IMG/VR virus record: IMGVR_UViG_2574180019_000004
Span: 1 to 39,225 of that record
From: a virus
Lineage: Duplodnaviria > Heunggongvirae > Uroviricota > Caudoviricetes
Length of the DNA stretch: 39,225 nucleotides
Direction: 5' to 3' (one strand)
In this document: in pieces, positions 15,798 through 37,200 of the stretch
How the letters are laid out: each line of letters opens with the position of its first letter
How positions within the stretch are numbered: position 1 is the stretch's first letter
Made by a program: the position numbers and the translations under genes
The notes under the pieces: model-generated
Seen by the model: only the letters and a program-made list of their open reading frames with translations
Told to the model about the DNA's origin: nothing
Databases searched by the model: none

Positions 15798-16004
15798 ATG
15801 TGCATGGGTAGCTCACCATCAGTGCCTGCAACACCAGAAGTTCAGGCAGCACCACAGGAGCAGGATGCCGCCGTTGTTGATGCCCGCGACGAAGAAACAC
15901 GTCGCCGTCGCGCTGCTGCTGGTCGTAGTTCTACGCTGCTTACTGGTTCTCAGGGCGACACATCAACCGCTAATACCAGCGGTAAAACGCTGCTTGGTCA
16001 GTAA
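15798..16004 (+). CDS. Small hypothetical protein upstream of portal
   Basis: 68-aa ORF MCMGSSPSVPATPEV..., low complexity; weak support. Confidence 0.4.
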   Translation: MCMGSSPSVPATPEVQAAPQEQDAAVVDARDEETRRRRAAAGRSSTLLTGSQGDTSTANTSGKTLLGQ

Positions 16005-16018
16005 CCGGAGTCATTGAA

Positions 16019-17698
16019 ATGGCGGAAACAACTAAAGAGCGATTGAACAAACAGTTCGCACAACTTGAAAGCGAGCGTCAGTCGTTCGAGCCGCACTGGC
16101 GCGAGTTGAGTGATTACATCAACCCGCGTGGTTCCCGCTTTCTGACTTCAGAGGTCAACCGTAACGATCGACGCAATGCACGCATTATTGATTCGACCGG
16201 GACTATGGCGGCGCGCACTCTCGCCAGCGGCATGATGTCAGGCATCACAAGCCCCGCGCGTCCGTGGTTTCGCCTGGCTACGCCAGATCCTGAAATGATG
16301 GATTATGGCCCTGTTAAGTTGTGGCTTGAGGCGGTGCAGAACCGCATGAACGATATGTTCAATAAGTCGAATCTCTACCAGTCTCTTCCGCAGTTATACG
16401 GAAGCCTCGGCACATACAGCACTGGTGCAATGGCAGTGCTGGAGGATGACGAGGACATCATTCGTACAATGCCATTCCCGATAGGCAGTTACTACCTGGC
16501 TAACTCACCTCGTGGCAGTGTTGACACCTGTTTTCGCAAGTTCTCTATGACTGTTCGTCAGCTTGTTCAGGAGTTCGGGCTAAATAACGTCAGCGAATCC
16601 GTAAAAAGCATGTGGGAAAGCGGCACCTACGAGAAGTGGATCGAAGTGATGCATTCGGTTTACCCGAACATTGACCGCGATACATCGAAGCTGGATAGCA
16701 AGAACAAGCCATTCAAATCGGTTTATTACGAGGTTGGCGGCGATAACGACAAGTTGTTGCGTGAGTCCGGATTCGATGAGTTTCCAATTATGGCTCCGCG
16801 CTGGGAAGTTAACGGCGAAGATGTTTATGGATCATCATGCCCGGGTATGCTGGCGCTTGGACCTGTTAAGGCATTGCAGCTTCTCCAGAAGCGCAAGTCG
16901 CAGTTGATTGATAAAGCCACCAATCCGCCGATGGTTGCTCCGACTTCCCTCAAGAATCAGCGCGCCTCCCTTCTTCCTGGCGACATCACGTATATCGATC
17001 AGATTACTGGTCAGGATGGTTTCAGGCCTGCTTATCTGGTTAACCCCAGTACAGCAGATCTGGTGGCAGACATTCAGGACACTCGCCAAATCATTAACAG
17101 CGCCTACTTTGTCGATCTGTTCATGATGTTGCAGAACATCAATACCCGCTCGATGCCTGTTGAAGCGGTGATCGAAATGAAAGAAGAAAAACTTCTGATG
17201 TTGGGGCCGGTTCTGGAGCGTCTGAACGACGAATGTCTTAATCCTCTCATTGACCGCGCTTTCTCTATGATGGTGCGTAAAAACATGCTGCCGCCACCGC
17301 CTGACGCGATGGAAGGCATGCCCCTGAAGGTCGAATACATTTCCGTCATGGCTCAGGCGCAGAAGTCTATCGGCCTGTCCAGTCTGGCGTCCACGGTTAA
17401 CTTCATTGGTCAACTTGCGCAAGCGAAACCAGAAGCTCTCGACAAACTCAACGTTGATCAGGCGATCGATGCATTCGCTGATATGTCCGGAGTGTCTCCA
17501 ACCGTCATTGTTCCGCAGGAACAGGTTGAGCAGGCTCGCCAGCAACGGGCACAGCAACAACAGCAGCAACAAATGATGGCGATGGGGATGGCGGCGGCAC
17601 AGGGTGCCAAGACGCTAAGTGAAGCTAAAACTTCGGATCCGAGTGTTTTGTCAGCTATGGCGAATGCAGTTAGTGGTCAGGGTGGGCAATCACAATGA
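16019..17698 (+). CDS. Portal protein (T7 gp8-like head-to-tail connector)
   Basis: 559 aa; position after terminase; C-terminal Q/A/M-rich tail (QQRAQQQQQQQMMAMGMAAAQG) resembles remembered T7 portal C-terminus. Confidence 0.8.
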   Translation: MAETTKERLNKQFAQLESERQSFEPHWRELSDYINPRGSRFLTSEVNRNDRRNARIIDSTGTMAARTLASGMMSGITSPARPWFRLATPDPEMMDYGPVKLWLEAVQNRMNDMFNKSNLYQSLPQLYGSLGTYSTGAMAVLEDDEDIIRTMPFPIGSYYLANSPRGSVDTCFRKFSMTVRQLVQEFGLNNVSESVKSMWESGTYEKWIEVMHSVYPNIDRDTSKLDSKNKPFKSVYYEVGGDNDKLLRESGFDEFPIMAPRWEVNGEDVYGSSCPGMLALGPVKALQLLQKRKSQLIDKATNPPMVAPTSLKNQRASLLPGDITYIDQITGQDGFRPAYLVNPSTADLVADIQDTRQIINSAYFVDLFMMLQNINTRSMPVEAVIEMKEEKLLMLGPVLERLNDECLNPLIDRAFSMMVRKNMLPPPPDAMEGMPLKVEYISVMAQAQKSIGLSSLASTVNFIGQLAQAKPEALDKLNVDQAIDAFADMSGVSPTVIVPQEQVEQARQQRAQQQQQQQMMAMGMAAAQGAKTLSEAKTSDPSVLSAMANAVSGQGGQSQ

Positions 17699-17991
17699 CA
17701 GATTACGAAGACGATCAACTGAAAGAAGAAAACGCCCGTAAGCAACGTGACATGGTGCAGCGTGAAATTGATGACATTCGCTTTGTCATGAGCAGTGAAC
17801 AGGGGCGTCGCGTTGTCTGGTCGGTGCTGGAGAAAGGCCGTGTGTTTTCCGCTATCTCACCGATGGACGCTATGGCAATGGCATTTAATGAGGGGCAACG
17901 CAATCTGGCGCTGGAACTGTTTCAGCGCGTTATGGCGCATTGCCCTGAGCAGTATTTGAAGATGGCCAAAGAGGCCAGTGAACAGGAGTGA
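17695..17991 (+). CDS. Hypothetical head-module protein
   Basis: 98-aa ORF, ATGA overlap with portal stop. Confidence 0.55.
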   Translation: MTDYEDDQLKEENARKQRDMVQREIDDIRFVMSSEQGRRVVWSVLEKGRVFSAISPMDAMAMAFNEGQRNLALELFQRVMAHCPEQYLKMAKEASEQE

Positions 17992-17993
17992 TC

Positions 17994-18689
17994 ATGAATT
18001 TATTTGAGCGTTTGCTGTATCGCCGTCTTTGCAATGAGCAACCAGTCGATGGTGGAGCAGCTCCGGCTGCGTCAGAACCGTCAGCGCCTGCAGGTGATAA
18101 CCCTGCTCCAGTTGGTGATCCATCACAACAGGAAGGTGATAAGCCACAACCTGTTGCTGATGGCGATAAACCTGCTGATGACAAAAAGCCTGAAAACGAT
18201 AAGCAGGATGAAAAAAAGGACGGCGATAAACCAGAGGGTGCGCCTGAGAAGTACGAGTTTCAGGCTGCCGAAGGCGTAGAACTGGATACAGAAGCGTTGA
18301 AGGAATTCGAGCCGGTGGCGCGAGAACTTAACCTGACCAACGAGCAAGCGCAAAAGCTGGTTGATGCTTATCCGAAGATTCTGGCAGGTGTTCAGCAGCG
18401 CCAGGCAGAAGCCTGGCAGAAAACAACCGAGCAGTGGGCTGCGGATGTAAAAGCTGACAAAGAAATCGGTGGCGACAAGTTGATTTCTAACCTTAGCGCC
18501 GCACAGCGTGCGCTTGACCAGTTCGGGACACCTGAACTCAAAGAATATCTGAACACCACCGGGCTGGGTAATCACCCTGATCTGGTCAAAACGTTCGTGA
18601 AAATCGGAAAGGCGATGTCTGAAGATGGCATGGTCACCGGTGGTAATGAAGGCCAGCGTAGTGCGGCCGAAGTGCTCTATGGCAAATAA
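17994..18689 (+). CDS. Scaffolding protein (acidic, low complexity)
   Basis: Highly acidic P/A/D/K-rich N-terminal half and helical C-terminal half; between portal and capsid genes; ATG 17994 after AGGAG. Confidence 0.65.
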   Translation: MNLFERLLYRRLCNEQPVDGGAAPAASEPSAPAGDNPAPVGDPSQQEGDKPQPVADGDKPADDKKPENDKQDEKKDGDKPEGAPEKYEFQAAEGVELDTEALKEFEPVARELNLTNEQAQKLVDAYPKILAGVQQRQAEAWQKTTEQWAADVKADKEIGGDKLISNLSAAQRALDQFGTPELKEYLNTTGLGNHPDLVKTFVKIGKAMSEDGMVTGGNEGQRSAAEVLYGK

Positions 18690-18703
18690 GAGAGGAAATG
18701 ACA

Positions 18704-19690
18704 ATGGCTGTTAAAGGCTTAACTGCGCTAACGCTGGCTGACTGGGGTAAGCGCGTCGATCCAAACGGGAAAGTCGATAAGATTATCGAGCTTCTCGGTC
18801 AAACTAACCCGATCCTTCAGGATATGCCTTTTGTCGAAGGGAACCTTCCTACCGGACACCGAACCACCATTCGTTCTGGTTTACCTTCAGCTACCTGGCG
18901 TTTGCTGAACTATGGCGTACAGCCAAGCAAATCAACCACAGTGCAGGTAACCGATTCCGTTGGCATGCTGGAAACCTATGCTGAAGTCGATAAGTCACTG
19001 GCTGATCTGAACGGTAATACCGCCGAATTCCGCCTGTCTGAAGACCGCGCATTTATTGAAGCGATGAATCAGCAGATGGCGCAGACACTGTTTTATGGTG
19101 ATTCCAGCGTTAACCCTCAGCAGTTTATGGGACTGTCCTCCCGCTATTCCAGCCTGTCTGCGGGTAATGCTCAGAACATCATTGATGCTGGTGGCACGGG
19201 TACAGATAACACCTCAATCTGGTTAGTGGTGTGGGGCGAAAACACCGTGCATGGCATCTTCCCGAAAGGGCAGAAGGCTGGCATCCAGATGGAAGATAAA
19301 GGCCAGGTGACACTGGAAGATGCGAATGGCGGCAAGTACGAAGGCTACCGTACCCATTACAAATGGGACAACGGACTTGCTCTGCGTGACTGGCGTTATG
19401 TTGTTCGCATTGCAAACATCGATGTCAGCAATCTTTCAGAACCTTCCTCTGCCGCAAATATTGCGAAGTTGATGGTTAAAGCACTGCATCGCATTCCAAA
19501 TCGTGGCATGGGTCGCCCGGTGTTCTACATGAACCGCACTGTAGGCCAGGCTCTTGATCTGCAATCTCTGGAGAAAACATCTCTGGCGATCAGCGTAAAA
19601 GAGACAGAAGGCGAGTGGTGGACTTCATTCCGTGGTGTACCAATCCGTGAAACTGATGCGCTTCTGGAAACAGAAGCCCGCGTGGTGTAA
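18704..19690 (+). CDS. Major capsid protein
   Basis: 329 aa following scaffold gene with strong RBS GAGGAA; size and position typical; followed downstream by a terminator as after T7 gene 10. Confidence 0.7.
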   Translation: MAVKGLTALTLADWGKRVDPNGKVDKIIELLGQTNPILQDMPFVEGNLPTGHRTTIRSGLPSATWRLLNYGVQPSKSTTVQVTDSVGMLETYAEVDKSLADLNGNTAEFRLSEDRAFIEAMNQQMAQTLFYGDSSVNPQQFMGLSSRYSSLSAGNAQNIIDAGGTGTDNTSIWLVVWGENTVHGIFPKGQKAGIQMEDKGQVTLEDANGGKYEGYRTHYKWDNGLALRDWRYVVRIANIDVSNLSEPSSAANIAKLMVKALHRIPNRGMGRPVFYMNRTVGQALDLQSLEKTSLAISVKETEGEWWTSFRGVPIRETDALLETEARVV

Positions 19691-19741
19691 CGCCTGTTAT
19701 TAACCTGTGGGTCGTAACAGACCCACTAATGGAGAAAGAAG

Positions 19742-20179
19742 ATGATCACCGACAAACTGTTGATGTTCTCCGAAGCTCAGGCGGTTACGAATACCGCGGC
19801 TTCTACTGACGTAATCGATCTCGGTCCAATTGATGGAAACCGTCGCGATATCGGTGTGGGTTACCCGCTTGAGTTTTGGGTGCTGGTTAACGAATCCGCC
19901 ACGGCAAGTGGTGAGGCAACTGTAAACATCCAGTTGCAGACGAGTGAGAATAACAGCTCATGGACCACTATTTATGATAGTGGCGCACTGGCAAAGACCG
20001 CCCTGGCAGCAGGTAAACGAGTTGTTTCTGCAAAGGTGCCTGCCGGTGTTCAGCGATATCTGCGTGTTAACTACTCCGTCGCAACTGGCCCACTAACGGC
20101 CGGCAAATTCACTGCGGGTATCAGTCTGGATGTTGATGCCAATACGCCGTACCCGATCCGCTCAAAAGTAACTGGTTAA
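19742..20179 (+). CDS. Hypothetical virion protein (possible capsid decoration)
   Basis: 145-aa ORF with RBS GGAGAAAG; position after capsid gene. Confidence 0.5.
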   Translation: MITDKLLMFSEAQAVTNTAASTDVIDLGPIDGNRRDIGVGYPLEFWVLVNESATASGEATVNIQLQTSENNSSWTTIYDSGALAKTALAAGKRVVSAKVPAGVQRYLRVNYSVATGPLTAGKFTAGISLDVDANTPYPIRSKVTG

Positions 20180-20189
20180 GGTGATATCG

Positions 20190-20525
20190 ATGTCAGGTGA
20201 GAAACCAAGATACCGCGTTCTGCGCCTCTCTCATATCCATAACACTCTGTGGCCGGAGGGGGCAGAAATCGAATACGAAGGTGAGCCTGGTAGCGCACTG
20301 GAACCTGTGAACGATGCAGCCAGACAGGCAAAAGCAAAAGTTGCAGGAAAGGTGTCAATGGCAGCAACCAGCACCAAAATCATCAACGATGTGTCAGATG
20401 ATGGTGAACTGGATAAGCTCCGTGAAGAGTACGAATTGCTCTTTAACGAGAAGCCACACCATAACGCCAAAGCCGAAACGCTCCGCGAGAAGATCGCAGA
20501 TAAGCGTAAAGAACTGGGCGTGTAA
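20190..20525 (+). CDS. Hypothetical protein
   Basis: ATG 20190 after AGGTGA; 112 aa. Confidence 0.5.
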   Translation: MSGEKPRYRVLRLSHIHNTLWPEGAEIEYEGEPGSALEPVNDAARQAKAKVAGKVSMAATSTKIINDVSDDGELDKLREEYELLFNEKPHHNAKAETLREKIADKRKELGV

Positions 20526-20541
20526 GCCTCGCGGATCAGAC

Positions 20542-20563
20542 AAGGGGCTTCGGCCCCTTTATT
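20542..20563 (+). terminator. Rho-independent terminator within structural region
   Basis: aggggc-ttcg-gcccc followed by tttatt. Confidence 0.65.
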
Positions 20564-20575
20564 GCAGGAGTGTAT

Positions 20576-20899
20576 ATGGAACTCGTAAACCTCAAAACCG
20601 GCACTGACAGCTACCAGGATGAGAGCGGAGAAACCAGAACTCGCGATGAATACCCGTGGGGGCTGTGCATCACTCTTAATAACGACACATTGAATAAGCT
20701 GAAGGCGCAACCTCAGGGCGTCGGAACAGAAGTGATGATAACTGCAAAGGCTGTTATTCGAGGCCTGTCTGCCAGAGAAACTGACGATGGTGTTAATCGC
20801 AGCGCCGATCTGCAGATCACTGATATGGCGATCGCTCCTGTTTCCGGGGATGTAGAAAAATCAGCGGCTGAAACCCTGTACGGCAATGGGGGTGAGTAA
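20576..20899 (+). CDS. Hypothetical virion protein
   Basis: ATG after AGGAG; 107 aa. Confidence 0.5.
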   Translation: MELVNLKTGTDSYQDESGETRTRDEYPWGLCITLNNDTLNKLKAQPQGVGTEVMITAKAVIRGLSARETDDGVNRSADLQITDMAIAPVSGDVEKSAAETLYGNGGE

Positions 20900-21504
20900 T
20901 GGCCTCTGTAGTAGAGATCTGCAATCGTGCGCTGTCCAATATTGGCAATAGCCGCAGCATTAACAGCCTGACGGAAGCCAGCAAGGAAGCGGGGGAATGT
21001 TCGCTGCACTTTGAGGCCTGCCGTGATGCTGTGCTTTCTGATTTTGACTGGAACTTTGCTACCAAACGCGTGGCGCTTGCAGATACGAGCAATCCACCGC
21101 CTGACTGGGAATATGCGTATCAGTACCCGTCCGATTGTCTGCGCATTAGTGAAATTATGCTTCCTGGTGTACGCAATCCAACAGCAGCAATGCGCGTTCA
21201 GTACGAAGTTGGTGCAGACACCAACGGAACAGGAAAGTTGATCTACACAGACCAGCCTCAGGCATGGCTCAAGTATGTCTCTCGCGTTTCAGATGTGAAC
21301 ATGTTTGATGCCATTTTTATGGAGGCGTTGGCCTGGCGTCTTGCGGCAGCTATTAACATGGCGCTGACTGGGAATGCGGATCTCGGTACATTTGCTCTCA
21401 ATATGTACAATCGCGTGATTCTTAGTGCTGGTTCGCATAGCCAGAATGAATCACAGGAACCACAGCCACCGGTTGACGAGTTTACCATTGCGAGGTTGTC
21501 CTGA
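20899..21504 (+). CDS. Tail tubular protein A-like (T7 gp11-like adaptor)
   Basis: 201 aa; N-terminal ICNRALSNIGNSRSINSL pattern resembles remembered T7 gp11 N-terminus; precedes gp12-like gene. Confidence 0.6.
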   Translation: MASVVEICNRALSNIGNSRSINSLTEASKEAGECSLHFEACRDAVLSDFDWNFATKRVALADTSNPPPDWEYAYQYPSDCLRISEIMLPGVRNPTAAMRVQYEVGADTNGTGKLIYTDQPQAWLKYVSRVSDVNMFDAIFMEALAWRLAAAINMALTGNADLGTFALNMYNRVILSAGSHSQNESQEPQPPVDEFTIARLS

Positions 21505-24978: not shown

Positions 24979-24990
24979 GGGGATAATAAG

Positions 24991-27504: not shown

Positions 27505-29303
27505 GTTACTTTGGCCTTAATCCAGTAAACCAGAATCAGCAGCTTGACGAAGCAGCATCAAATCCAGCTGGCTTTAACAGCGATGTTGGTTTTTTCGACA
27601 ATGCTGTAGGGGCGGCATTGTCTGGTTTGTACTCCGGGCTGGTGGCAAAGCCAGATCAGTTGCTATGGGCAGGGATGGATAAAATCGTATCCCCGATTGC
27701 TCAGTTTGTTAACGAAAACACCTTGCTCAATGACACTTCAGTTTCATACATTGCTGAGCAGAGAAAACTAGCAGAGCAGCAGGTTAAGCGGCTGACGCCT
27801 GATGCCGCGACAACCGGAACCGCCGGGCAGGTTCTTTATGTGTTGTTCGATATGGGCGGGCAGGCTGTTGTCGGTACAACGCTCGGTGGTCCTGTCGGAG
27901 GTGCAGCGGCGGTAACTTCGCTACAGGGTTTTTCTGAGTTTGAACGGCTGACAGCACAGGGTGTTGATTTCAGGACGGCGCAGGAAGCGGGATTAGTGCA
28001 GGGCATTACTGCTGGTGCCGGAACACTGATCCCTATGAGCCTCGGGTTACGTGCTGGTGGTGCGCTGGCGGAAGGTGTGGCGGCTCAGCTTGCGCGGACG
28101 GGTGAGAGTTCAGTGCGACGCGCCGCAGCAACAGCAGTACGTGCAACGCCAGATATTGCCTATGCCGCAGGTACAAATATTGCGTTCGGTATGGCACAGC
28201 GTGGGCTTACTGCAAAAACGCTTCGTGATGGTGGCTATAGCGAAATGGCTAACCAGTATGATGTGTTGGATCGACAGGCAATTGCTATTGATGCTGTTCT
28301 TGGGGTGGCGTTTGGTGGTGTCGGCAGATTTATTAACTCTCGCGGCGAGTCTACAAGCACACCAAATTTTTCACCAGTTGATATCGATGCTGCACTGGCG
28401 GCGAATGCCGCTCATCATGCTGAAATTGATATTGCTCCTGGCGTGCCGATCAACGTGCTTTCGCGTAATTCTCACATTCAGGCTCTGCGAAAAGCCATGT
28501 CTGATGTTAGCCAGGGGAGAGATGTAGACGTTGCCAGCATTGTTGAGTCTGCATCTTTCAGTGAAATTCCTGGGCGCAAGAGTCTGCTGTCTCAGGCAGT
28601 TAATGAGGCTCTGTCATCTGTAGATGATGGAGTAACGGCGCGCGCTATAGAAAATCGGTTGCTTGAAGAACAGGCCGCGCAGCTTTTGCCGCGTGGCGAT
28701 AGACAGGTTTACCAGTCTGAAATCGCTAATAGCCAACGAATTATTGAAAATCTCACTGAACAGCGCGCACAAATTCTTGCAGAAGAGCCAACCGGTAGCG
28801 GTAAGGCTTTATCTCGTGCTCGATCAGATAAACAGGCCAGACTTCGCGATATTGACCAACGAATCCGGCAGGCACAAGAACGCCTGGAATCTTCTCGTAA
28901 CGCGTTGGCACCGCACGAGCCTGGCGGTCAGTTTTTTGAAGCTAGAGCAGAACTGGCTCGGAGACAGCAGGCAGAAAGTGAACTTAATGCTCAGGCTGTT
29001 TCATTCTATAAAACAGCAGAGGTCAGGACGCCAGACGAAGTAGCTCCTTTTGAGCCCGGTAAGATATTGCAACAGGCAGAACAAAAGATGATGGCAGATC
29101 CGGCAGGAGATATTGATCTGCGCATAGCTGAAGATTCGCTGCTTGAATCACCGGACATGATAATAACCGTGCTGGATGATGATGGTAATCCACAATCGCG
29201 CAGCGCGCGTGAAGTGCTGGATGAAGCGAACAGGGAAAGTGAGCAGGCAATACAGGATTCCAGCCTGTTTGATGTTGCTGTGGCGTGTTTCTTGAGAGGT
29301 TAA
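27501..29303 (+). CDS. Internal virion/ejection protein
   Basis: 600-aa ORF, ATGA-type overlap with previous gene; A/G-rich N-terminus. Confidence 0.55.
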   Translation: MSYFGLNPVNQNQQLDEAASNPAGFNSDVGFFDNAVGAALSGLYSGLVAKPDQLLWAGMDKIVSPIAQFVNENTLLNDTSVSYIAEQRKLAEQQVKRLTPDAATTGTAGQVLYVLFDMGGQAVVGTTLGGPVGGAAAVTSLQGFSEFERLTAQGVDFRTAQEAGLVQGITAGAGTLIPMSLGLRAGGALAEGVAAQLARTGESSVRRAAATAVRATPDIAYAAGTNIAFGMAQRGLTAKTLRDGGYSEMANQYDVLDRQAIAIDAVLGVAFGGVGRFINSRGESTSTPNFSPVDIDAALAANAAHHAEIDIAPGVPINVLSRNSHIQALRKAMSDVSQGRDVDVASIVESASFSEIPGRKSLLSQAVNEALSSVDDGVTARAIENRLLEEQAAQLLPRGDRQVYQSEIANSQRIIENLTEQRAQILAEEPTGSGKALSRARSDKQARLRDIDQRIRQAQERLESSRNALAPHEPGGQFFEARAELARRQQAESELNAQAVSFYKTAEVRTPDEVAPFEPGKILQQAEQKMMADPAGDIDLRIAEDSLLESPDMIITVLDDDGNPQSRSAREVLDEANRESEQAIQDSSLFDVAVACFLRG

Positions 29304-29308
29304 ATTAA

Positions 29309-31783
29309 ATGAGACAGGAATGTATACAAGCGGTCCAGCAGGCGGCGCAGCGCACGTTAACGGCGCGAGAAATACAGAACATTGAAGACCGCATTTATCG
29401 AAATATGCGCTCCATTGCTCGTGATGACCCGATGTCGTGGCGACAACTTTCCGAATCAGAACGGTTGTATCGTGCAGCACAATTGGCATCTGAAGAATTA
29501 CAGCGAGAAGCGGCATTAAAGAAACGTCGTGTGGCCCTCACTATAGCCGCACGTCAGAGATTGGATAAATTTATCAATAGCTATCAAGGGGCTGATGGGA
29601 AACTTGGCGCTCTTAACCGTACTATTGCTTTTAATGCAGACGGTAAATCGAATTTCCTCTCTGTTGAATCCAGAACAAAAGCCACCCGTGATTATGCATT
29701 GAGTCAATTGCAGGAGGCATTCGAAGCAGTTGATCCTCGCTTTTTTGGTCTGTTTGAAGATGAAGCGGGCGTACGTGACCTGGTATATGAAATGCGGGGG
29801 CAAAATACTGGCAATGCTAAAGCAAGAAAAGGTGCTAAGGCGTGGAGAGAAGTTACAGAGCTGCTGCGCCGCCGGTTTAATGATGCTGGTGGGGACATTG
29901 GCTATCTCGAAAACTGGGGGATCCCTCAACATCATTCTATGGAAAAGGTTGGGGCAGTATCAAAGGATAAGTGGGTTAGCGATGTTATAGGTAAGCTGGA
30001 TCGCAAATATTATATCCGAGCCGATGGACAACTGATGAACGATGCCGAGTTGTCTTCATTTCTTGGAGAGGCTTATAACACGATCGCTACTGGTGGGCTG
30101 AATAAGCTTACTGATACCGGAATGCGAATTTCCGGCGCACGTGCTAACCGTGGTAATGCATCACGACAGATACATTTCAAAGATGCAGATTCCTATCTGC
30201 AATATCAGCAACTTTATGGCGATCGCTCTCTATGGGAAATCATGGTCGGTCACCTGGAAGGTATCAGTAAAGATATTGCACTGGTGGAAACATATGGCCC
30301 AAACCCCGATCATGTTTTCCGCTCTCTTCTTGATCAGGTGAAGGCAGAAACGGCAACAGCTAACCCGAGTAAAACCGGTAAAGTCGAGCGGCTGGCGAAC
30401 AACACAGAGAATCTGTACAACTTTATTTCCGGAAAGACACAGCCTGTAGCGAATCCGCACATCGCGCGATGGTCTGACAATATCCGCAACTGGCTGGTTG
30501 CCAGCAGACTCGGATCCGCGTTGCTGTCATCGTTCTCTGATCTTGGAACCATGTATCTGTCTGCGAAGGTGACCAACCTTCCAATGAACCAGTTATTCCG
30601 CAACCAGCTTGAAGCTATGGACCCAACGAACCGTACTGAGCTTGCGCGGGCGCGCCGCGCTGGTCTGGCGATGGAATCTCTACTTGGCAGCGTTAACCGC
30701 TGGGCGATGGATAATATGGGGCCGTCTGTGTCTCGTTGGGCTGCAACGGCGGTAATGCGTGCCAGTGGGCTTACAGCATGGTCAGATGCGCACAAGCGCG
30801 CCTATGGCGTAACCATGATGGGAAGCCTGGGAGAAGTAGTGTCACGGACACCAGACCTTCGTAGCCTCGATGACTCTGATTTTCGTATCCTGAAAAGTAA
30901 AGGGATTACTGACACAGACTGGAGCGTATGGAAGCTGGCGCAACAGGAGGACTGGGGGAACGGTAATAATACGATGCTGACACCGGAAAGCATTATGCGT
31001 ATCCCTGATTCAGCAGTTAAACATCTTGGTGAGCCTGAACGCGTGAAATTTGAGGCAATGCGTAAACTGCTCGGTGCCGTAACTGAAGAAGTTGATATGG
31101 CTGTTATTACACCGGGCGCACGTGAGCAGATGTTCGTAGGGTCTGGTCTTCAGCGTGGAACATGGAAAGGTGAATTAACGAGAAGTGTTTTCCTGTTTAA
31201 ATCGTTCCCTATCTCGGTTGTTATGCGTCACTGGTCACGCGCTATGGGTATGCCGTCTGCTGGTGGGCGTGCAGCATATATAGCAACGTTTTTAGCAAGC
31301 ACAACCATGCTTGGTGCTCTTTCCATGCAGATTACTGATCTTATTAATGGGAGAAATCCAAAGGAAATGACCGGTGACCACATGGTTAAATTCTGGATAA
31401 ATGCATTTTTAAAAGGTGGCGGGGCTGGGTTGTACGGTGATTTTCTTTTCTCTGACCACACTAGGTACGGGAGCGGCGCGCTGGCGTCGATGCTTGGCCC
31501 GGTAGCTGGTCTGGTTGATGACGTAGTGAAGATAGCTCAGGGCATACCGCTAAATGCTGTGGAAGGGAAGAGTGAGCAGACTGGTGGTGATCTGGTTAAG
31601 CTGGGGAAGGGGCTGATGCCAGGTGCGAATCTCTGGTACTTGAAGGCGGCTCTCGATCATATGATCTTTAACCAGATGCAGGAGTATTTTTCACCAGGCT
31701 ATTTGCGTAAAATGGAGCAACGTTCGAAGAAAGAGTTTAACCAGACATACTGGTGGCGACCTCAGGATGTCACTCCGCAATAA
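29309..31783 (+). CDS. Internal virion/ejection protein (large)
   Basis: 824-aa ORF with RBS GAGG; last large gene before moron island. Confidence 0.55.
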   Translation: MRQECIQAVQQAAQRTLTAREIQNIEDRIYRNMRSIARDDPMSWRQLSESERLYRAAQLASEELQREAALKKRRVALTIAARQRLDKFINSYQGADGKLGALNRTIAFNADGKSNFLSVESRTKATRDYALSQLQEAFEAVDPRFFGLFEDEAGVRDLVYEMRGQNTGNAKARKGAKAWREVTELLRRRFNDAGGDIGYLENWGIPQHHSMEKVGAVSKDKWVSDVIGKLDRKYYIRADGQLMNDAELSSFLGEAYNTIATGGLNKLTDTGMRISGARANRGNASRQIHFKDADSYLQYQQLYGDRSLWEIMVGHLEGISKDIALVETYGPNPDHVFRSLLDQVKAETATANPSKTGKVERLANNTENLYNFISGKTQPVANPHIARWSDNIRNWLVASRLGSALLSSFSDLGTMYLSAKVTNLPMNQLFRNQLEAMDPTNRTELARARRAGLAMESLLGSVNRWAMDNMGPSVSRWAATAVMRASGLTAWSDAHKRAYGVTMMGSLGEVVSRTPDLRSLDDSDFRILKSKGITDTDWSVWKLAQQEDWGNGNNTMLTPESIMRIPDSAVKHLGEPERVKFEAMRKLLGAVTEEVDMAVITPGAREQMFVGSGLQRGTWKGELTRSVFLFKSFPISVVMRHWSRAMGMPSAGGRAAYIATFLASTTMLGALSMQITDLINGRNPKEMTGDHMVKFWINAFLKGGGAGLYGDFLFSDHTRYGSGALASMLGPVAGLVDDVVKIAQGIPLNAVEGKSEQTGGDLVKLGKGLMPGANLWYLKAALDHMIFNQMQEYFSPGYLRKMEQRSKKEFNQTYWWRPQDVTPQ

Positions 31784-31792
31784 GGAACAACA

Positions 31793-32206
31793 ATGAAGGA
31801 ATTATTGCTGTTATCGGTATTTTTGATATCCGCTTGCTCGACATCCTATGATGTTTATGACGGTGTTGATAAGGCATATTGCGACAAAGTTAAAATGGAT
31901 TTTTCTCTTGCCAAGACGGCGAAGGATAGTTGTATTGATCACTACGTCAAGACTTATACCAAGCCAGCATCATCGGCATCTGATATTGCTGAAGGTGCTG
32001 TGTTTGAGTGTAACAAGGTGATATCCATCGCAGCGAGTTCTTCATACGATGCTGCTGTATGTGCAATGGCTGAAAGAAACGGCATGTCAGTGCAAAAAGT
32101 TAATAGCATGATAAACAGTAATGACGAAGCCAAAATAAGAACTGATATCAGCTCGGTGAAAAAAGATGCCATGAACAGAGTTGTAAAATATCAGTCATCT
32201 TTATAA
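31793..32206 (+). CDS. Lipoprotein (moron; candidate superinfection-exclusion factor)
   Basis: Signal peptide with lipobox MKELLLLSVFLISAC-S; 137 aa; followed by palindrome and terminator. Confidence 0.7.
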   Translation: MKELLLLSVFLISACSTSYDVYDGVDKAYCDKVKMDFSLAKTAKDSCIDHYVKTYTKPASSASDIAEGAVFECNKVISIAASSSYDAAVCAMAERNGMSVQKVNSMINSNDEAKIRTDISSVKKDAMNRVVKYQSSL

Positions 32207-32207
32207 G

Positions 32208-32219
32208 TCGTGACATGTC
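32208..32219. repeat. Palindrome GTGACATGTCAC (copy 3 of 3)
   Basis: Exact copy, immediately followed by terminator hairpin. Confidence 0.6.
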
Positions 32220-32243
32220 ACAGGCCGCAAAAGCGGCCTTGTT
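32220..32243 (+). terminator. Rho-independent terminator after lipoprotein gene
   Basis: aggccgc-aaaa-gcggcct followed by tgtttt. Confidence 0.65.
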
Positions 32244-32263: not shown

Positions 32264-32950
32264 TCAGAAGAACCCTGCTTTGTCGTTGATGTACTCCGCG
32301 TGCGTCTGGATATCACGCAGGCATTTGTTCACACCGACGATGTAGCAGAACATGGTGGTCAACTCCGCCGCCGCGCCCGATACGTCGTGCCCGTCTTCCT
32401 GTAACTGGTTCAGCAGATTCATCAGCAGTGAGTTCTCCGTCAGGCCGAGAACACCAGACGGCGAGTGAATCAGACTGCGGTAGCCGGGCTTTAGTGGGGC
32501 GCTGTAGGTTTTGTTCTCTATCTTCATTGCCTGCATCACTGCTGATGCTGTGGCGTTGGCTACCTGGTCGGCAACCATCTTTATGCGTTCTTCTTGCGGG
32601 AGCGAGTTTTTAATGTAACTTCCGGTGCGGCGGATCTGAGGAAGAACCTCACCTGTAACCCATTTACGAAAGCGGTATGGGATAGTGCCTGGTGTCACCG
32701 CATCGCGGCAGCGGAGGATCAGTGTGTAGAGGCCTGACTCGTTGATAATATTGGTTTCGCCTTGACGGCCTAAGTTAAATTTAGCCCTTTCATCATCATC
32801 AAGAGATTTTATTGACATAGTGGGGTTTGTCAGTTGAAGAGCTTTAATAACGTCTTTGGCAACAAACCAAGGATTTCCATCAATAACAATGGCTCGAATG
32901 GTTGCTTCTGATTCAAAATGAAAAACAGATGGGGTTACGTTAGCAGTCAT
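32264..32950 (-). CDS. Bro-N domain antirepressor-like protein
   Basis: Start at internal ATG (MTANVTPSVFHFESEATIRAIVIDGNPWFVAKDV = Bro-N signature) with RBS AAGGTGA; C-terminal approx 70 aa paralogous to the small gene at 34096-34353. Confidence 0.75.
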   Translation of the reverse strand: MTANVTPSVFHFESEATIRAIVIDGNPWFVAKDVIKALQLTNPTMSIKSLDDDERAKFNLGRQGETNIINESGLYTLILRCRDAVTPGTIPYRFRKWVTGEVLPQIRRTGSYIKNSLPQEERIKMVADQVANATASAVMQAMKIENKTYSAPLKPGYRSLIHSPSGVLGLTENSLLMNLLNQLQEDGHDVSGAAAELTTMFCYIVGVNKCLRDIQTHAEYINDKAGFF

Positions 32951-33231
32951 AGTGATCACCTTTGTAGTTAGGTTAATCACCACTACCGACGCCAATCGGT
33001 TGGTGGTGAACTGTGCAGGGTTGGCGTAACCGGCTACAAAGGACCCGGCGCACCTTTCGGTGCCCCCACACAGCCCACCATAGAATAGGTGCGCTTTACA
33101 CATAAAAAAACCGCTTATGCGGCATATGTGCCTCTGTAGTAATCCGGGACGCCAATCCCGGCACTGGATTTTGCCAGTGCCCGATTACTATGGCACAAGA
33201 GGAGTGCGATGTAAATTTACCGTAAAGGTAA
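32951..33231 (-). promoter_or_regulatory. Structured 5' leader / candidate small RNA upstream of Bro-N antirepressor
   Basis: Hairpin 32977-33009 (12-bp stem, loop ACGCCAAT); complementary TTGGCGT at 33021-33027; hairpin 33050-33063; terminator-like ccgc-ttat-gcgg + A-run (33104-33122); three-helix element 33136-33191 with loop ACGCCAAT again; candidate -35 TTGATT / -10 TATCAT on minus strand. Confidence 0.4.
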
Positions 33232-33324
33232 TGATAAGCGCGAAGAAACATTGAAATCAACCGTATTTGGTTGATTGCGTTTAACGCTTGATCACCTGAA
33301 AGCAAGATATTACCTTTAAGGTAA
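33217..33324. promoter_or_regulatory. Two perfect operator palindromes in divergent promoter region
   Basis: TTACCgtaaaGGTAA 33217-33231 and TTACCtttaaGGTAA 33310-33324 (20 bp upstream of ATG of gene at 33345). Confidence 0.6.
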
Positions 33325-33344
33325 TGTTATTGTGAGGAAAAGCA

Positions 33345-34073
33345 ATGGAAGTTTTCTGGATAGTTGTTGGTGTGGTTGCGGTGATTATTTACGTTATCAA
33401 CCAGAACAAGACTAAGATCTCTGATCGTACGGTCGTTAATCATAACAAAACGATAAAGACCGAAGATGGGGAGATAACGATTAATCGTACACAGGTGATA
33501 GAACACACCTCTACTCAGTTTCAAAAAACTGGAGGTAATGCGCCTAATATTTCCGCACCTCCTGCTTATGATAGTGCGGTAATCCAGACATATTATAAAC
33601 AGCAGGAGTTAGCAAAAGAGAGGCAACTGATTCAGCCAAAGCCGTTTACAGCTGAGATTCCACCTGGAGTGTCAACGCGTCCGGCATATCATGGAAGATT
33701 CCCTGGTGATGACATATCGTCTCAGTCATCTAAAAAAGCACCTCAGGCAATATCAGAGCCAGCAAGAATACCTTCTGTATCGCCGCCAAAAGAAGAATCA
33801 GCTAACAGAGTTTCAAGTGGTAGCAAGCAGTGCTTGCGATGCAGAATAAACCTTCCATATGAAAAATTCAGGAAATCGTCAAAAAATCCAGATGGATTGA
33901 CTAAATGGTGTGCAAGGTGTCTCGATGGCCCAAAGAATACACGCCATATGAAGTGGTGCCCAATTTGTAATGTCCGCAGAAAACGAACCAGCTTTTACCC
34001 TAATAATCAAAATGCGGACGGCTTAATGGCATGGTGCAAAACGTGCTGGGATGAGCACAAAGCGAAACGATAG
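33345..34073 (+). CDS. Membrane-anchored tandem zinc-ribbon protein (unknown function)
   Basis: N-terminal TM helix (VFWIVVGVVAVIIYVI) followed by basic NQNKTK; S/P-rich linker; two repeated modules KxCxRC...NPDGLxxWCxxC (CLRC...WCARC and CPIC...WCKTC); RBS GAGGAAAAG. Confidence 0.65.
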   Translation: MEVFWIVVGVVAVIIYVINQNKTKISDRTVVNHNKTIKTEDGEITINRTQVIEHTSTQFQKTGGNAPNISAPPAYDSAVIQTYYKQQELAKERQLIQPKPFTAEIPPGVSTRPAYHGRFPGDDISSQSSKKAPQAISEPARIPSVSPPKEESANRVSSGSKQCLRCRINLPYEKFRKSSKNPDGLTKWCARCLDGPKNTRHMKWCPICNVRRKRTSFYPNNQNADGLMAWCKTCWDEHKAKR

Positions 34074-34097
34074 GCCGCTCTTGCGGCCTTTAAATTT
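34072..34097. terminator. Intrinsic terminator shared by convergent genes
   Basis: ggccgc-tctt-gcggcc followed by tttaaattt. Confidence 0.55.
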
Positions 34098-34353
34098 ACC
34101 GGGTTTGTTTTCGTAATTGTTCGGCACAATAGTCGAGATGTGTTTGCAGATCCCGCATAGACATCTGTGAGCTGGTGACGTAGTTAATCAGTGCAGTCAG
34201 TTCGGCAAGTGGGCCATCGACATTAAATCCATCCTTATCGAGATCCCGGAGTAATTTCATCAAGTGCGATCCCTCCACCAGTGACCTGACGCCTCCCGGC
34301 GTGTGAATCCTTTCGGTAAATCCGTCTTCCAGTGGATAGTGATACTGCTGCAT
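34096..34353 (-). CDS. Small antirepressor-like protein (85 aa), LexA-box controlled
   Basis: ATG 34353 after GGAGAAG; paralogous to Bro-N protein C-terminus (IHTPGGVRSLVEGSHLMKLL...AELTALINYV vs IHSPSGVLGLTENSLLMNLL...AELTTMFCYI); LexA box about 20 bp upstream. Confidence 0.6.
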   Translation of the reverse strand: MQQYHYPLEDGFTERIHTPGGVRSLVEGSHLMKLLRDLDKDGFNVDGPLAELTALINYVTSSQMSMRDLQTHLDYCAEQLRKQTR

Positions 34354-34372
34354 CTTATCTTCTCCATGCAAT

Positions 34373-34392
34373 AACTGTATATTTATACAGTA
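34373..34392. promoter_or_regulatory. LexA (SOS) box
   Basis: aaCTGTATATTTATACAGta = CTGT-N8-ACAG, 18/20 match to consensus TACTGTATATATATACAGTA. Confidence 0.7.
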
Positions 34393-34444: not shown

Positions 34445-34548
34445 TATCTTTTCGTATTTATGGATTATCTATCCATATGTGGTTTTTCAGGTAATAGAAT
34501 AACCAGATATGCGGCGCAACGGGTGCTGCGACTATCTGGAGATTTAAC

Positions 34549-37200
34549 ATGACGGTCTCAACCGAAGTTGACCACAACGAATACACTGGTAACGGAGCTA
34601 CGACATCATTTCCGTATACCTTCCGTATTTTCAAAAAATCCGACCTGGTTGTTCAGGTGTCTGACCTGAACGGGAACGTAACAGAATTGGTTCTGGATAC
34701 TGACTACACAGTAACCAATGCTGGAGGATATAATGGCGGTAATGTAATTCTGTCGAAGGCGTTGGCTAACGGTTATCATATTTCTATATCACGAGAGCTC
34801 CCGGTTACGCAGGATACTGATTTGCGTAATCAGGGTAAGTTCTTCGCTGAGGTACATGAAGACGCGTTCGATAAACTGACAATGCTTATTCAAAAGTGTT
34901 TTTCATGGATGAGGTTAGCACTTATAAAACCAAGCATTCTGGCTAACTATTATGATGCAAAAAATAATAAGATATCAAATCTAGCAAATGCCACTGACAG
35001 AAACGATGCTGTCAATAAAGGTTATGTTGATGATCTTTTTACTGGAGGTGTAACGCCTACACCTAACAGCGCTAAAAACGATATTTTTACAAATCACCAA
35101 AGAAAGATTGTAGCTACGATGCCGCTTCTTTTTCCTGAATATGATGCGATTATGGCTGCTAACCCGTCAGCAACTTATATGTATCCTCAAGGATTCTGCG
35201 TTAGCGAAGATTTGATATACATCACTTATCCATTTGAGCCTAAACAGACGAATAATGTCGTCGCAGTATTTAACATATCTGGTATTTATCAAGGTTATTT
35301 CTATGTTCAGGCTGGCGGCCCAGGCTTCGCTGCTGAAGGAATCGTGGTTACGTCAGACTATGGCCCCAAAAAAATGTTTGTTGGTCACACAAACGGAATA
35401 CTGCGTGAATTTAATATGGAGGGGGCATTATACGGAAGCAATCTGCCTCTTGTACAAAACCATGATGTTGGATTATTCAACCAGTTCAGCTACAGAAGAG
35501 GTATATGGCTCGTTGAGCAGAATGCGCCAGAAGTAGGACAGAAAATCACAAGAACTGTACTTGCAGTGTTCGACAGTGGTTTCAATCGCCTGTCAACTAT
35601 AACGCTGCCGTTACATGATGTTGGGTATGTAACTAAAAGCACCTCACCTTATGCGCCTTATTTCAACAAGCGTCAGGGTATTGCGGTAGGTGATAACTAC
35701 TTTGTCTGCGGCTATGGCGGCTTCATAGCTGATGGGGCAGGAAGCGCAGGATATAACGAATATCAGGGCAGCAAAGTTTTTAACCCTGACGGTACAAAGC
35801 GAACTGAATCAATGCTTCATCCTCAGGCCATGATGGATTTAATGAAAGCCGCAGGATTGAACGTCACTCGCATAGAAAATGAAGGCGTTTGTGTTTCTCA
35901 GGATGGAAAATCCATTTATTCACTTTACATTCATCAGGAAAGAACTGGCTCTGAACCTTACAATTCAGGTTTGGTTATTTTCGAAGATTTCTCCACTAAT
36001 AAAGATGCTATCGATTTTACACCTGCATCCAGGCTTTACCGCGGATTTGATATCGATCACGCGAGCATTGGGGTATATCCCCGTAGTGCGAAGGGGATTG
36101 TTAACCCTGTAGATGGTACGTTGTTCACTAACATGACTGAAATTCTTCGCTATATGCAGGAGATGAGTCAGAAGGCATTTAATTTTTACACAGGGACTGT
36201 CAGCATTGCTGATATATCTGGCGTGGCAATCCCTTCCAGCACATATGTTGAAATACTGAATGCGAATAATCAGACTTTTATAGTCAACTATTATTCATCT
36301 GATAGTGGCATTAGTTATTTGGTTGCAACTAATCCTTCTGGTGACTTTGTATTTGTGCGCCAGCGACCGGCACAGTGGGCATCTAACTTAACCATTCAGC
36401 AAAACGCAGATCCTGATACAAACCAATTAAACCGCATCACTGCATCATCATATGCCGGTGCAACTACAAACTCTCAGAAAATATTGGTCCTTGACCAGCA
36501 GGCTACAGCTAGCGCAAATAGCTTGGTATTGGGCGGTAGTTCTTCTGTGTTTAGGTCTGCCACCACGGTGGATATTGCATGCAACAGCGACCCGACAGCA
36601 TTGGGAGGAACCATACGCTGGCGGTTTTATGATACAGGTCTTCGCCCGTTTGCTGACAATACCTATAATTTTGGTCAGGCATCGTTTCGTATTAAAGACG
36701 CCTACTTTGCAAATGCCCCAACCGTTTCATCAGATGCCACGCTGAAAACCAATCCCGAGGCAATATCAGATTTAAGTGAAATGCTTTCTTCTGATAGAGA
36801 CAGCATTCTTGATGCCTGGGGCGATATTTCTGTTGTGGCGTATCGATGGCTCGACGCTATATCCATGAAGGGCGATGGTGCCAGATGGCATTTTGGCGTC
36901 ATGGCTCAGCAGGTAAGAGATGTATTCCTGGCGCACGGAATTGATGGAACCAGATTTGGCCTTCTTTGCTATGACGAGTGGGACGATATTTTTGAGCCGG
37001 TAATCGCGACTAAAGAGATTACCGATGCGTCTGGTGAGTTGGTCACCGTCGAATATGACACCGGAGAACAGAGGCTGGTTAAAAAAGCGGGTAGTTCATG
37101 GGGCATACGGCCTGACCAGTGCGCTTGGCTTGAGGCTGCATATCAGCGCCGCCGATGCGATCGTATTGAAGAGCGACTCGAACTATTGGAATCAAAATAA
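34549..37200 (+). CDS. Tail fibre / tailspike with T7 gp17-like N-terminal adaptor and C-terminal intramolecular chaperone (S74-like) domain
   Basis: 883 aa; N-terminus resembles remembered T7 gp17 N-terminal domain; C-terminal approx 150 aa (from DATLKTNPEAISD onward) resembles endosialidase-type auto-cleaving chaperone. Confidence 0.8.
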   Translation: MTVSTEVDHNEYTGNGATTSFPYTFRIFKKSDLVVQVSDLNGNVTELVLDTDYTVTNAGGYNGGNVILSKALANGYHISISRELPVTQDTDLRNQGKFFAEVHEDAFDKLTMLIQKCFSWMRLALIKPSILANYYDAKNNKISNLANATDRNDAVNKGYVDDLFTGGVTPTPNSAKNDIFTNHQRKIVATMPLLFPEYDAIMAANPSATYMYPQGFCVSEDLIYITYPFEPKQTNNVVAVFNISGIYQGYFYVQAGGPGFAAEGIVVTSDYGPKKMFVGHTNGILREFNMEGALYGSNLPLVQNHDVGLFNQFSYRRGIWLVEQNAPEVGQKITRTVLAVFDSGFNRLSTITLPLHDVGYVTKSTSPYAPYFNKRQGIAVGDNYFVCGYGGFIADGAGSAGYNEYQGSKVFNPDGTKRTESMLHPQAMMDLMKAAGLNVTRIENEGVCVSQDGKSIYSLYIHQERTGSEPYNSGLVIFEDFSTNKDAIDFTPASRLYRGFDIDHASIGVYPRSAKGIVNPVDGTLFTNMTEILRYMQEMSQKAFNFYTGTVSIADISGVAIPSSTYVEILNANNQTFIVNYYSSDSGISYLVATNPSGDFVFVRQRPAQWASNLTIQQNADPDTNQLNRITASSYAGATTNSQKILVLDQQATASANSLVLGGSSSVFRSATTVDIACNSDPTALGGTIRWRFYDTGLRPFADNTYNFGQASFRIKDAYFANAPTVSSDATLKTNPEAISDLSEMLSSDRDSILDAWGDISVVAYRWLDAISMKGDGARWHFGVMAQQVRDVFLAHGIDGTRFGLLCYDEWDDIFEPVIATKEITDASGELVTVEYDTGEQRLVKKAGSSWGIRPDQCAWLEAAYQRRRCDRIEERLELLESK

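Follow-up and report, generated by a model that had tools for sequence, protein, structure and literature searches.

The 39,225 nt of IMG/VR record IMGVR_UViG_2574180019_000004 (positions 1 to 39,225, the whole of which is called the window here) come from a tailed virus of the Caudoviricetes, and they raise the question of whether a phage with lambda-like early genes has recently acquired the virion of another phage group. An initial annotation had described a chimera in which lambdoid integration, immunity, recombination and replication functions were joined to a T7-like virion module, and had added that the whole might resemble temperate podoviruses of the epsilon15/phiV10 type. Mapping of open reading frames (ORFs) and searches of Pfam and PHROGs found every gene that it named in its place. 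Its headline did not survive: the apparently chimeric layout is the conserved, published and inherited plan of an entire genus, and contains no new join. With a probability of about 0.93, what the window holds is an entire and apparently intact Uetakevirus prophage (a genus comprising the phiV10/epsilon15 group), delimited by its two attachment (att) sites. Phages of this kind, which are temperate, short-tailed and infect Escherichia coli, are already well described.

The affiliation was established at the nucleotide level. Both halves of the window were compared by megablast with annotated phage genomes, and the phiV10 group (phiV10, O157 typing phages 9 and 10, PAS61, phiv142-3, ZX5, HEMP4 and TL-2011b) matched at 97% identity, followed by Enterobacter phage Tyrion at about 81% and by the Salmonella phages epsilon15 and SPN1S/SPC32H at about 75-77%. 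Counted base by base with blastn, phiV10 covers 83.1% of the window at 94.7% identity, a product of about 0.79, and epsilon15 covers 47% at 76%. By the convention of the International Committee on Taxonomy of Viruses, members of a genus share at least about 70% nucleotide similarity over the genome, a value that the comparison with phiV10 exceeds; an overall similarity of about 79% would make the window a separate species within that genus. From integrase to spanin, the ORFs follow the order annotated in phiV10 and epsilon15. The likeness to epsilon15/phiV10-type podoviruses suggested initially is therefore borne out by megablast identity and by gene order.

The ends of the window carry an exact 17 nt direct repeat. 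Its first copy, the attL core ATTGAGTGGGAATGATT (1..17, plus strand, on which all features given below lie unless marked as minus), corresponds to the final four codons and stop codon of host guaA, and the second is the attR core (39209..39225). In E. coli P4, which carries a 97%-identical prophage, the same 17-mer closes the guaA coding sequence (CDS) and the prophage integrase gene follows directly. All 17 nt of the core are present in attL of that strain and only 11 of 17 in attR; a search of its right junction allowing at most one mismatch did not recover the full core. The exact terminal repeats and the guaA junction together indicate that the window is one whole prophage, attL to attR. 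The tyrosine integrase gene (208..1464; PF13356, PF22022 and PF00589) encodes a P4-type arm-binding domain, and its product would insert the prophage at the 3′ end of guaA while restoring the final guaA codons. Of the lambdoid integration proposed initially, the integrase stands, but its type is that of P4.

The chromosome beyond the prophage differs among hosts. In other public E. coli contigs yfgI/yfgH lie directly to the right of the prophage, and in E. coli P4 a cargo island separates the prophage from yfgI/yfgH. To the right of attR in E. coli P4 (12026-14770) we observed a response regulator gene, an integrase-core pseudogene and an AAA ATPase gene, then yfgI; these intervening genes therefore represent a second small island at the guaA-yfgI hotspot. 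A different arrangement was seen in public contig DABINR010000030.1 (GCA_013080665.1; 37.6 kb, with an identical tail spike), where, at 10065-11430, about 220 bp or less separate the spanin gene from a following MT-A70 gene, and gene calling placed neither an integrase nor a phosphatase in that space. This contig may have undergone a deletion, or its assembly may represent a circle.

How far the virion module is T7-like depends on the level at which it is examined. The interval given initially, 15798-37200, opens exactly with the leading ORF of the head operon and closes with the tail-spike stop codon. BLASTP of all virion proteins of the window against T7 gp8-gp19 gave no significant cognate pair, the best values being E 0.043 over 22 residues for gp17 and E 0.064 over 13 residues for gp14, and phmmer against the same T7 proteins listed no cognate match. 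At the level of ordinary sequence comparison the term T7-like is therefore unsupported. Profiles and folds give a different answer for part of the module. The portal (16019..17698) belongs to the T7 gp8 family, with a match to PF12236 (E 3e-187) that spans amino acids (aa) 7-496; the T7-like C-terminus noted initially is thus part of a likeness extending well beyond it. Among solved structures, the portal matches that of Carin-1 (PDB 8ck0, E 6e-179) and, more weakly, that of P-SCSP1u (E 1.9e-5).

The 201-aa tail adaptor (20899..21504), labelled a tail protein in PHROGs, matches the Carin-1 protein named ‘Connector’ (PDB 8ck1_E, E 2e-26). Its AlphaFold (AF2) model has a predicted local distance difference test (pLDDT) score of 87.8, and the Carin-1 connector is also its top match by Foldseek. 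The model aligns with T7 gp11 (7box_N) at E 3.2e-6 with a template modelling score of 0.59 and 12% identity, and matches at E 3e-6 to 9e-5 include T7 gp11, tail tubular protein A (TTPA) of KP32, and the proteins of P-SCSP1u, Kp7, Kp9, PhiM1 and HRP29. Sequence identity to T7 gp11 is 12-14%, and a profile of close gp11-like homologues run against PDB sequences found only Carin-1 and LME-1, and not T7.

For the 823-aa tail nozzle (21504..23975; a PHROG tail protein matching 8ck1_A, ‘Tail Nozzle’, at E 1.5e-217), a simple homologue search returned only relatives of at least 82% identity, and a profile was built from 128 clusters of a 50%-identity cluster library. With this profile T7 gp12 was the sole non-self match among the T7 and window proteins (hmmsearch E 0.031 at PDB-size Z). 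By hhalign, profile columns 345-463 align with T7 gp12 residues 350-466 (P 9.6e-5, probability 58%), and six other T7 proteins used as controls reached at most 1% probability. A second nozzle profile, searched against PDB sequences, matched a solved protein of 793 aa named ‘nozzle gp13’ (E 2.5e-5), again in this segment. The nozzle is thus a remote T7 gp12-type protein. The family is large, with 18,278 clusters at 50% identity reaching E<=1e-3, 9,142 of them E<=1e-30, and many members carry 100-300 additional residues ahead of the conserved C-terminal two-thirds.

Five genes for internal virion (ejection) proteins follow (23975..31783; phrog_308 and phrog_418, ‘internal virion protein’). The first product (IVP-A, 23975-24439) is a PHROG internal virion protein, and the second (IVP-B, 24439-24978) falls in the T7 gp14 family (PF24072, 32.8 bits against a cut-off of 27). 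The third, an 837-aa virion protein (24991-27504), has a muralytic domain at aa 249-398 that it shares with Gp29 of podophage E1004 (9vvp_L, E 3.8e-38) and with an endolysin (7q47); this domain would be the functional parallel of the lytic transglycosylase of T7 gp16. The remaining two, a 600-aa internal protein (27501-29303) and an 824-aa candidate for IVP-D (29309-31783), were placed by PHROGs. We considered the 837-aa protein as a tape measure on account of phrog_2276 and rejected it, the match covering only aa 185-421 and spanning the same muralytic domain. The window contains no tape-measure, tail-tube or sheath gene, in agreement with the initial annotation, which had seen no siphovirus or myovirus tail proteins.

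The capsid and terminase genes belong to other families. The head block (17695..20899; PF25181, PF20911, PF21190 and PF21628, with PHROGs, and including one small ORF) encodes a Bbp19-like protein (17695-17991, Pfam), a scaffold-like protein whose PHROG label is protease (17988-18689), a major capsid protein of the epsilon15 gp7 family (18698-19690; PF20911, E 2e-149), a Bbp16-like protein (19742-20179, Pfam) and an epsilon15 gp10-like cement protein (20570-20899; PF21628, E 1e-51). Both components of an epsilon15-type capsid are therefore present. The terminase genes (12563..14631) comprise a small subunit (PF03592) and a large subunit (13156-14631), with phrog_2 matched, and BLASTP found no similarity to T7 gp18/gp19. 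The small-subunit ORF is open from a TTG at 12485, and a terminator-like hairpin (12494-12511) and two repressor operators (12531 and 12549) lie inside that extension; ATG 12563 yields 198 aa, the size annotated in epsilon15. The small terminase probably starts at 12563, and the 224-aa annotation in the style of phiV10 is probably too long.

Taken together, portal, adaptor, nozzle and ejection proteins are very old homologues of the T7 set, kept in T7 gene order and detectable at the level of fold and profile, and this homology excludes capsid and terminase. The initial list of T7-like proteins can thus be kept for portal, gp11, gp12 and gp14 by profile or fold, and fails on BLASTP and for capsid and terminase. 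The link has already been published for epsilon15: Hardies et al. 2016 (PMC4819975) reported a strong match of hidden Markov models between the epsilon15 and T7 tubular-tail-B groups (E<1e-10) limited to the central domain (T7 gp12 354-556), grouped the epsilon15 terminase and capsid with siphoviruses, and assigned epsilon15 orthologues of the internal virion proteins. The virion of the present phage would accordingly join an epsilon15-type capsid of the HK97 fold, with its cement protein, to a portal-adaptor-nozzle tail and internal ejection proteins, the tail and ejection proteins being very distant homologues of T7 gp8, gp11, gp12, gp13, gp14 and gp16.

The tail spike (34549..37200; Pfam, PHROGs, PDB 3gw6, tblastn and AF2/Foldseek) is the part of the virion in which exchange can be recognized. 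It has four parts: an epsilon15-type anchor (aa 1 to about 170), a predicted beta-propeller receptor-binding domain (RBD; about 181-490), a stalk, and a Peptidase_S74 chaperone (728-883). The anchor is of the epsilon15 gp20/Carin-1 type, with 61% identity to epsilon15, and it matches the N-terminus of the Carin-1 fibre in sequence (E 1.9e-25) and in fold (E 1.2e-9). It had been described as a T7 gp17-like adaptor, a remote homology that we could not establish: PF03906, the profile of the N-terminal domain of T7 gp17, gives 21.6 bits where the Pfam gathering cut-off is 25.2, and it matches only 28 residues (aa 134-161 against profile positions 122-149). An hhalign comparison of the anchor with T7 gp17 residues 1-160 is collinear and weak (P 0.016, probability 2.9%), and T7 gp17 is not among the top 50 fold matches of the spike, whose model is poor at aa 85-180. 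The endosialidase-type chaperone proposed for the C-terminus is confirmed by PF13884 (E 2.8e-12), by the endosialidase chaperone structure 3gw6 (E 3.9e-39) and by Foldseek (E 9e-14). S728, D729 and K733 are invariant among 27 spike homologues and are predicted to have a catalytic role.

The RBD (aa ~181-490) is probably a beta-propeller according to its model, in which pLDDT lies between 83 and 94 for most of aa 181-320 and, from there to about 490, largely at 70-90. Its best structural matches are receptor-binding proteins of the Staphylococcus phages Phi11, 80alpha, P68 and NF5, followed by WD40-type propellers. In this it resembles the Phi11, 80alpha and P68 proteins, unlike the usual beta-helix O-antigen depolymerase.

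The same RBD is found behind several different anchors. From about residue 171 on, one homologue (P0243) is 84% identical and carries a P22-type head-binding anchor (PF09008); two others (P0244 and P0246) are 71-72% identical and have genuine T7-type anchors (PF03906); and a Rahnella homologue (P0245), at 64% identity, has an epsilon15-type anchor. More distant homologues, about 41% identical, are encoded by several other coliphages whose genomes measure about 47 and 73 kb. By tblastn the RBD is 70.5% identical to Kayfunavirus records, and it is in Kayfunavirus proteins that T7-type anchors occur on this RBD. At the protein level the junction lies at the motif NDI(F/Y)xNH(Q/K)RK(I/V)V..MPL near aa 170, and nucleotide similarity to phiV10 within the gene stops at 34892. 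Guanine-plus-cytosine (GC) content is 0.42-0.44 across 33-36 kb and about 0.50 elsewhere. An identical spike protein is encoded in at least 24 public E. coli contigs. These comparisons make it well supported that RBD and chaperone form an exchangeable host-range cassette, as the initial annotation had suggested. A trimeric spike of this kind would recognize the host, its conserved N-terminal anchor fitting the tail and its RBD and self-cleaving chaperone being swappable. Modularity of tail spikes has been published for Uetakevirus, Lederbergvirus and Kayfunavirus (PMC10408124). Judged by these comparisons, recent exchange looks to be visible only in the tail-spike cassette and a few accessory genes.

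The immunity region had been called lambdoid. A divergent repressor/Cro pair is indeed present, and the remainder of the system is of another kind. The repressor gene rep (5777..6361, minus) encodes two helix-turn-helix (HTH) regions and is the orthologue of the non-cleaved SPC32H repressor (PDB 5d50_A, ‘Repressor’, E 4e-42); in Pfam it matches HTH_3 only, and no S24 autocleavage domain was found there. The Cro-like small regulator (6516..6746; phrog_35, transcriptional repressor, E 9e-13) is transcribed divergently. Between them, within 6417..6479, lie three TTACC-N5-GGTAA operators starting at 6417, 6435 and 6465 in an OR-like arrangement, and further sites start at 151, 5643, 5705, 6803, 8748, 8810, 12531, 12549, 15693, 33217, 33310 and 34430. 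Counting both strands and up to one mismatch, 34 matches were observed against 4.4 expected. The operators are intergenic. Besides the three just named, two lie downstream of rep, and the rest either precede int, the genes at 6834 and 8828, the terminase genes, the head operon (15693) and the spike (34430) or fall in the antirepressor region. The motif coincides with ‘repressor’ protein_bind features of the epsilon15 RefSeq record and recurs in phiV10. With about 13 predicted operators spread over the genome, the repressor seems to act directly on the late, terminase and tail-spike units.

Two antirepressor modules accompany this system. The small Ant (85 aa; CDS 34096-34353 within 34096..34390, minus) matches PDB 5d50_E (‘Anti-repressor protein’, E 1.4e-46), and its gene is preceded, at a distance of about 22 nt, by a perfect LexA box, CTGTATATTTATACAG (34375-34390). 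Repressor and antirepressor are thus both of the SPC32H type. The second module (32264..33180, minus) encodes a BRO-N antirepressor (PF02498, phrog_130) preceded by two Rfam RNAs in tandem, a C4 antisense RNA (32999-33085, minus; RF01695, 79.5 bits) and an isrK-like (Hfq-binding) RNA (33104-33180, minus; RF01394, 76.8 bits). Because the long ORF at 32264-33103 overlaps the C4 RNA and stops just short of isrK, the true start of this Ant is probably ATG 32950 (CDS 32264-32950). The layout of C4, isrK and BRO-N gene is like that of P1/P7 immI. Both antirepressor products share a C-terminal domain (phrog_450).

As far as orthology and motifs can tell, immunity would be of a dispersed-operator, antirepressor-driven form other than the lambda CI/RecA scheme. 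In lysogeny the SPC32H-type Rep would bind TTACC-N5-GGTAA sites genome-wide, including those before the terminase, head and spike units. On DNA damage LexA would leave the box before the small ant gene, whose product would then bind and inactivate Rep; the BRO-N antirepressor would stand behind the C4/isrK-type small RNAs. A study of SPC32H antirepression, to go by its title (Kim and Ryu, 2013), is cited in a review among cases in which LexA cleavage leads through an antirepressor to repressor inactivation (PMC7380047).

The remaining lambdoid claims concern recombination and replication. RecT (3473-4354, minus; Pfam RecT) and a RecE-like PD-(D/E)XK nuclease (4351-5172, minus; DUF3799, with relatives labelled exonuclease VIII/RecE-like) are both present, as annotated. 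The replication module (7113..8710; PF13730, PF17948 and PF06992) supports the claim of an O/P pair by half: the helicase loader (7925-8710) is lambda P-like (PF06992, E 1.5e-56), and the initiator (7113-7928) combines HTH_36 and DnaT domains (PF13730 and PF17948), with no Phage_rep_O match in Pfam and hence no member of the lambda O family. Four 24 nt iterons with consensus GAATgAtCCCAAAAACGGGATgTT lie at 7367-7519 within the initiator gene and are probably the replication origin, in a layout like that of lambda O though with another protein family. The DnaT/HTH-type initiator would act on the iterons in its own gene, together with the P-type loader. The RNA polymerase of T7 has 883 aa. Outside the virion module every ORF has 491 aa or fewer, which leaves no room for such an enzyme, and the early ORFs are all small or belong to other families.

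Could the window nevertheless be a recent chimera, a lambdoid prophage backbone newly provided with an Autographiviridae-like virion module? Portal, adaptor, nozzle and gp14 do fall in T7-related families or folds, the order portal-scaffold-capsid-11-12-13-14 through to the fibre is collinear with T7, and the RBD shares 70% identity with its counterpart in the T7-like phages of Kayfunavirus. On the other side, the adaptor is only 12-14% identical to gp11 and the virion proteins are devoid of significant BLASTP matches to T7. GC content stays even, at about 0.50-0.52, where early genes give way to late ones, the capsid and terminase families differ from those of T7, there is no room for the T7 RNA polymerase, and dozens of phages, including epsilon15 and phiV10, have the same layout at 75-97% nucleotide identity. 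Recent exchange with T7-like phages is seen in the receptor-binding cassette only. We therefore hold a recent chimera to be extremely improbable. A defective remnant or satellite that is complete in appearance only is a different concern, given that this is a chromosomal prophage known here from its sequence and that contig DABINR010000030.1 suggests that deleted or rearranged copies exist. Against this, all phiV10 genes from integrase to spanin are present in the phiV10 order with undamaged ORFs of full length, neither att core is damaged, no frameshifts were seen in essential genes, and the close relatives PAS61, ZX5 and phiv142-3, whose size is the same, have been isolated as phages that form plaques. 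A defective remnant is accordingly highly improbable.

The identification as an intact Uetakevirus prophage with distant T7 relatives in its tail must be set against several weaker points. The function of Rep, Ant and the LexA box is inferred from orthology and a sequence motif, and the capacity of the present copy for induction and particle formation is read from sequence alone. Nozzle and T7 gp12 are linked over some 110 residues, for which the statistics obtained here are modest (an E of 0.031 by hmmsearch and a probability of 58% by hhalign) and the stronger figure is the published one for epsilon15, and BLASTP and PDB searches gave the 600-aa and 824-aa internal proteins no match to T7 proteins or solved structures. 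The spike was modelled as a monomer with a mean pLDDT of 66.7, and the model is unreliable at residues 85-180 and 605-727.

The other genes of the window fit the same genus plan. The early-left operon (1467..5483, minus; Pfam Metallophos, MT-A70, PerC, Phage_AlpA, RecT and DUF3799) encodes, besides RecT and the nuclease, a NinI-like phosphatase, an MT-A70 methyltransferase, a PerC-like protein, an AlpA/Xis-like protein and a small ORF. Accessory early genes (8828..12444; Pfam and PHROGs) include DUF1064, Ead/Ea22, DUF551 and internally duplicated ORFs and end with an epsilon15 gp49-like regulator (12103-12444; phrog_536); this block is the most variable region relative to phiV10. Within 10351-12113 there are internal duplications of 33, 51 and 30 nt (96-100% identity, copies 505-874 nt apart), which give adjacent accessory ORFs paralogous N-termini. 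A gene for tRNA-Arg(TCT) (15294..15370, minus; ARAGORN and Rfam RF00005) is kept in phiV10 and PAS61. This tRNA and the 1.1-kb gap of low coding content around it (14632-15797) were examined as possibly unusual features and set aside, both being conserved in phiV10, PAS61 and others.

A perfect 12 nt palindrome, GTGACATGTCAC, occurs exactly three times in the window against 0.12 expected. The copies lie at 12441-12452, ahead of the gp49-like regulator's stop codon by 0-7 nt; at 14706-14717, 75 nt past the stop of the large terminase gene; and at 32210-32221, 4 nt past the stop of the final gene of the structural operon. Each adjoins a terminator-like hairpin at an operon end syntenic with epsilon15 and phiV10, and at the syntenic sites epsilon15 has three copies and phiV10 two (in its linear record), even though the aligned parts of epsilon15 are only about 76% identical to the window. 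The palindrome may be a site of termination or antitermination control. That the spike RBD has an uncharacterised receptor specificity or enzyme activity and that late transcription is also controlled at GTGACATGTCAC, by a mechanism of termination or antitermination not yet described, is, as a joint proposition, doubtful in our judgement.

Toward the right end lie two genes that are absent from phiV10. One encodes a 137-aa protein (31793..32206; phrog_8691) with a lipoprotein-like signal (LISAC), a putative lipobox read from the translation, and the other a 242-aa Cys-rich, zinc-ribbon-like protein (33345..34073; phrog_6762, E 6e-150) that has weak endonuclease VII and Lar-like matches as well. 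The lysis cassette (37289..39107; PHROGs 198, 217, 181 and 312) consists of two holin genes, a GH19 endolysin gene (37987-38616) and a gene for an Rz-like spanin (38613-39107), and identical genes in public contigs carry Pfam families as well.

The discovery value of the window is small, since its architecture is the published epsilon15/phiV10 plan and the link to T7 is already in the literature. It adds at most another species-level member of Uetakevirus, with a spike cassette that is common in public E. coli assemblies. Its practical value is modest and lies in a well-delimited, probably inducible prophage at guaA whose spike receptor-binding cassette is unlike those of the characterised O157, O103 and O146 relatives. 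In line with the published modularity of such spikes (PMC10408124), the cassette is potentially useful for serogroup prediction or host-range engineering.

With phage lambda and the lambdoid phages the window shares the P loader, a divergent repressor/Cro-like pair with three operators, RecT with an exonuclease, a NinI-like phosphatase and Ead/Ea22. Unlike these phages, it has only P of the O and P pair, no S24 repressor of the CI type, antirepressor-driven induction, about 13 dispersed operators that include late units, a P4-type integrase and short-tail structural genes; its tail genes are of the adaptor/nozzle type rather than of lambdoid long-tail or P22 type, and its lysis cassette follows the tail spike instead of lying between late regulator and terminase. 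With T7 it shares the PF12236 (gp8-family) portal, the gp14 family, the adaptor at the level of fold, the nozzle at the level of a profile over about 110 aa (gp12 350-466) and the order of virion genes. T7 and other Autographiviridae differ in having a gp10 capsid, a gp19 terminase, and their own RNA polymerase and replication genes, which the window lacks; the terminase genes lie upstream of the portal in the window and at the right end in T7, and the window is temperate (integrase, Rep, Ant and att sites) whereas the T7 group is strictly lytic.

Closer counterparts of the individual virion proteins are provided by Cobetia marina phage Carin-1 (PDB 8CK0/8CK1) and Legionella phage LME-1 (9EFK), which have the closest solved portal, connector, nozzle and N-terminal fibre anchor, although they infect other hosts and their distal spike domains are unrelated to those of the window. 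Epsilon15 and SPC32H/SPN1S have the same genome plan, the same capsid gp7/gp10 and tail gp11/gp12 families, and Rep/Ant orthologues of the solved SPC32H proteins, and in epsilon15 the same operator motif occurs at syntenic places. Unlike the window, epsilon15 is annotated with a spike of the beta-helix type and with conversion genes for an O-antigen polymerase/inhibitor, and ARAGORN found no tRNA in it.

The nearest relatives are phiV10 (NC_007804), PAS61, phiv142-3, ZX5 and TL-2011b. Relative to phiV10, the parts of the window that do not align are 1448-2120 (the phosphatase), three pieces within 9392-11832, 31787-32208, 33240-34095 and 34893-37196 (the spike). RecT and the RecE-like nuclease are two genes in the window and are annotated as a fusion in phiV10, and phiV10 has an oac O-acetyltransferase gene after the spike, where the window has none and a holin gene begins 89 nt beyond the spike. 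All cassette proteins that differ from phiV10 have full-length PHROG families, so none of them is new. Outside these cassettes the group shares integrase, Rep/Ant, DnaT and P, tRNA-Arg(TCT) and the head, tail, ejection and lysis genes with the window, in synteny over the whole genome.

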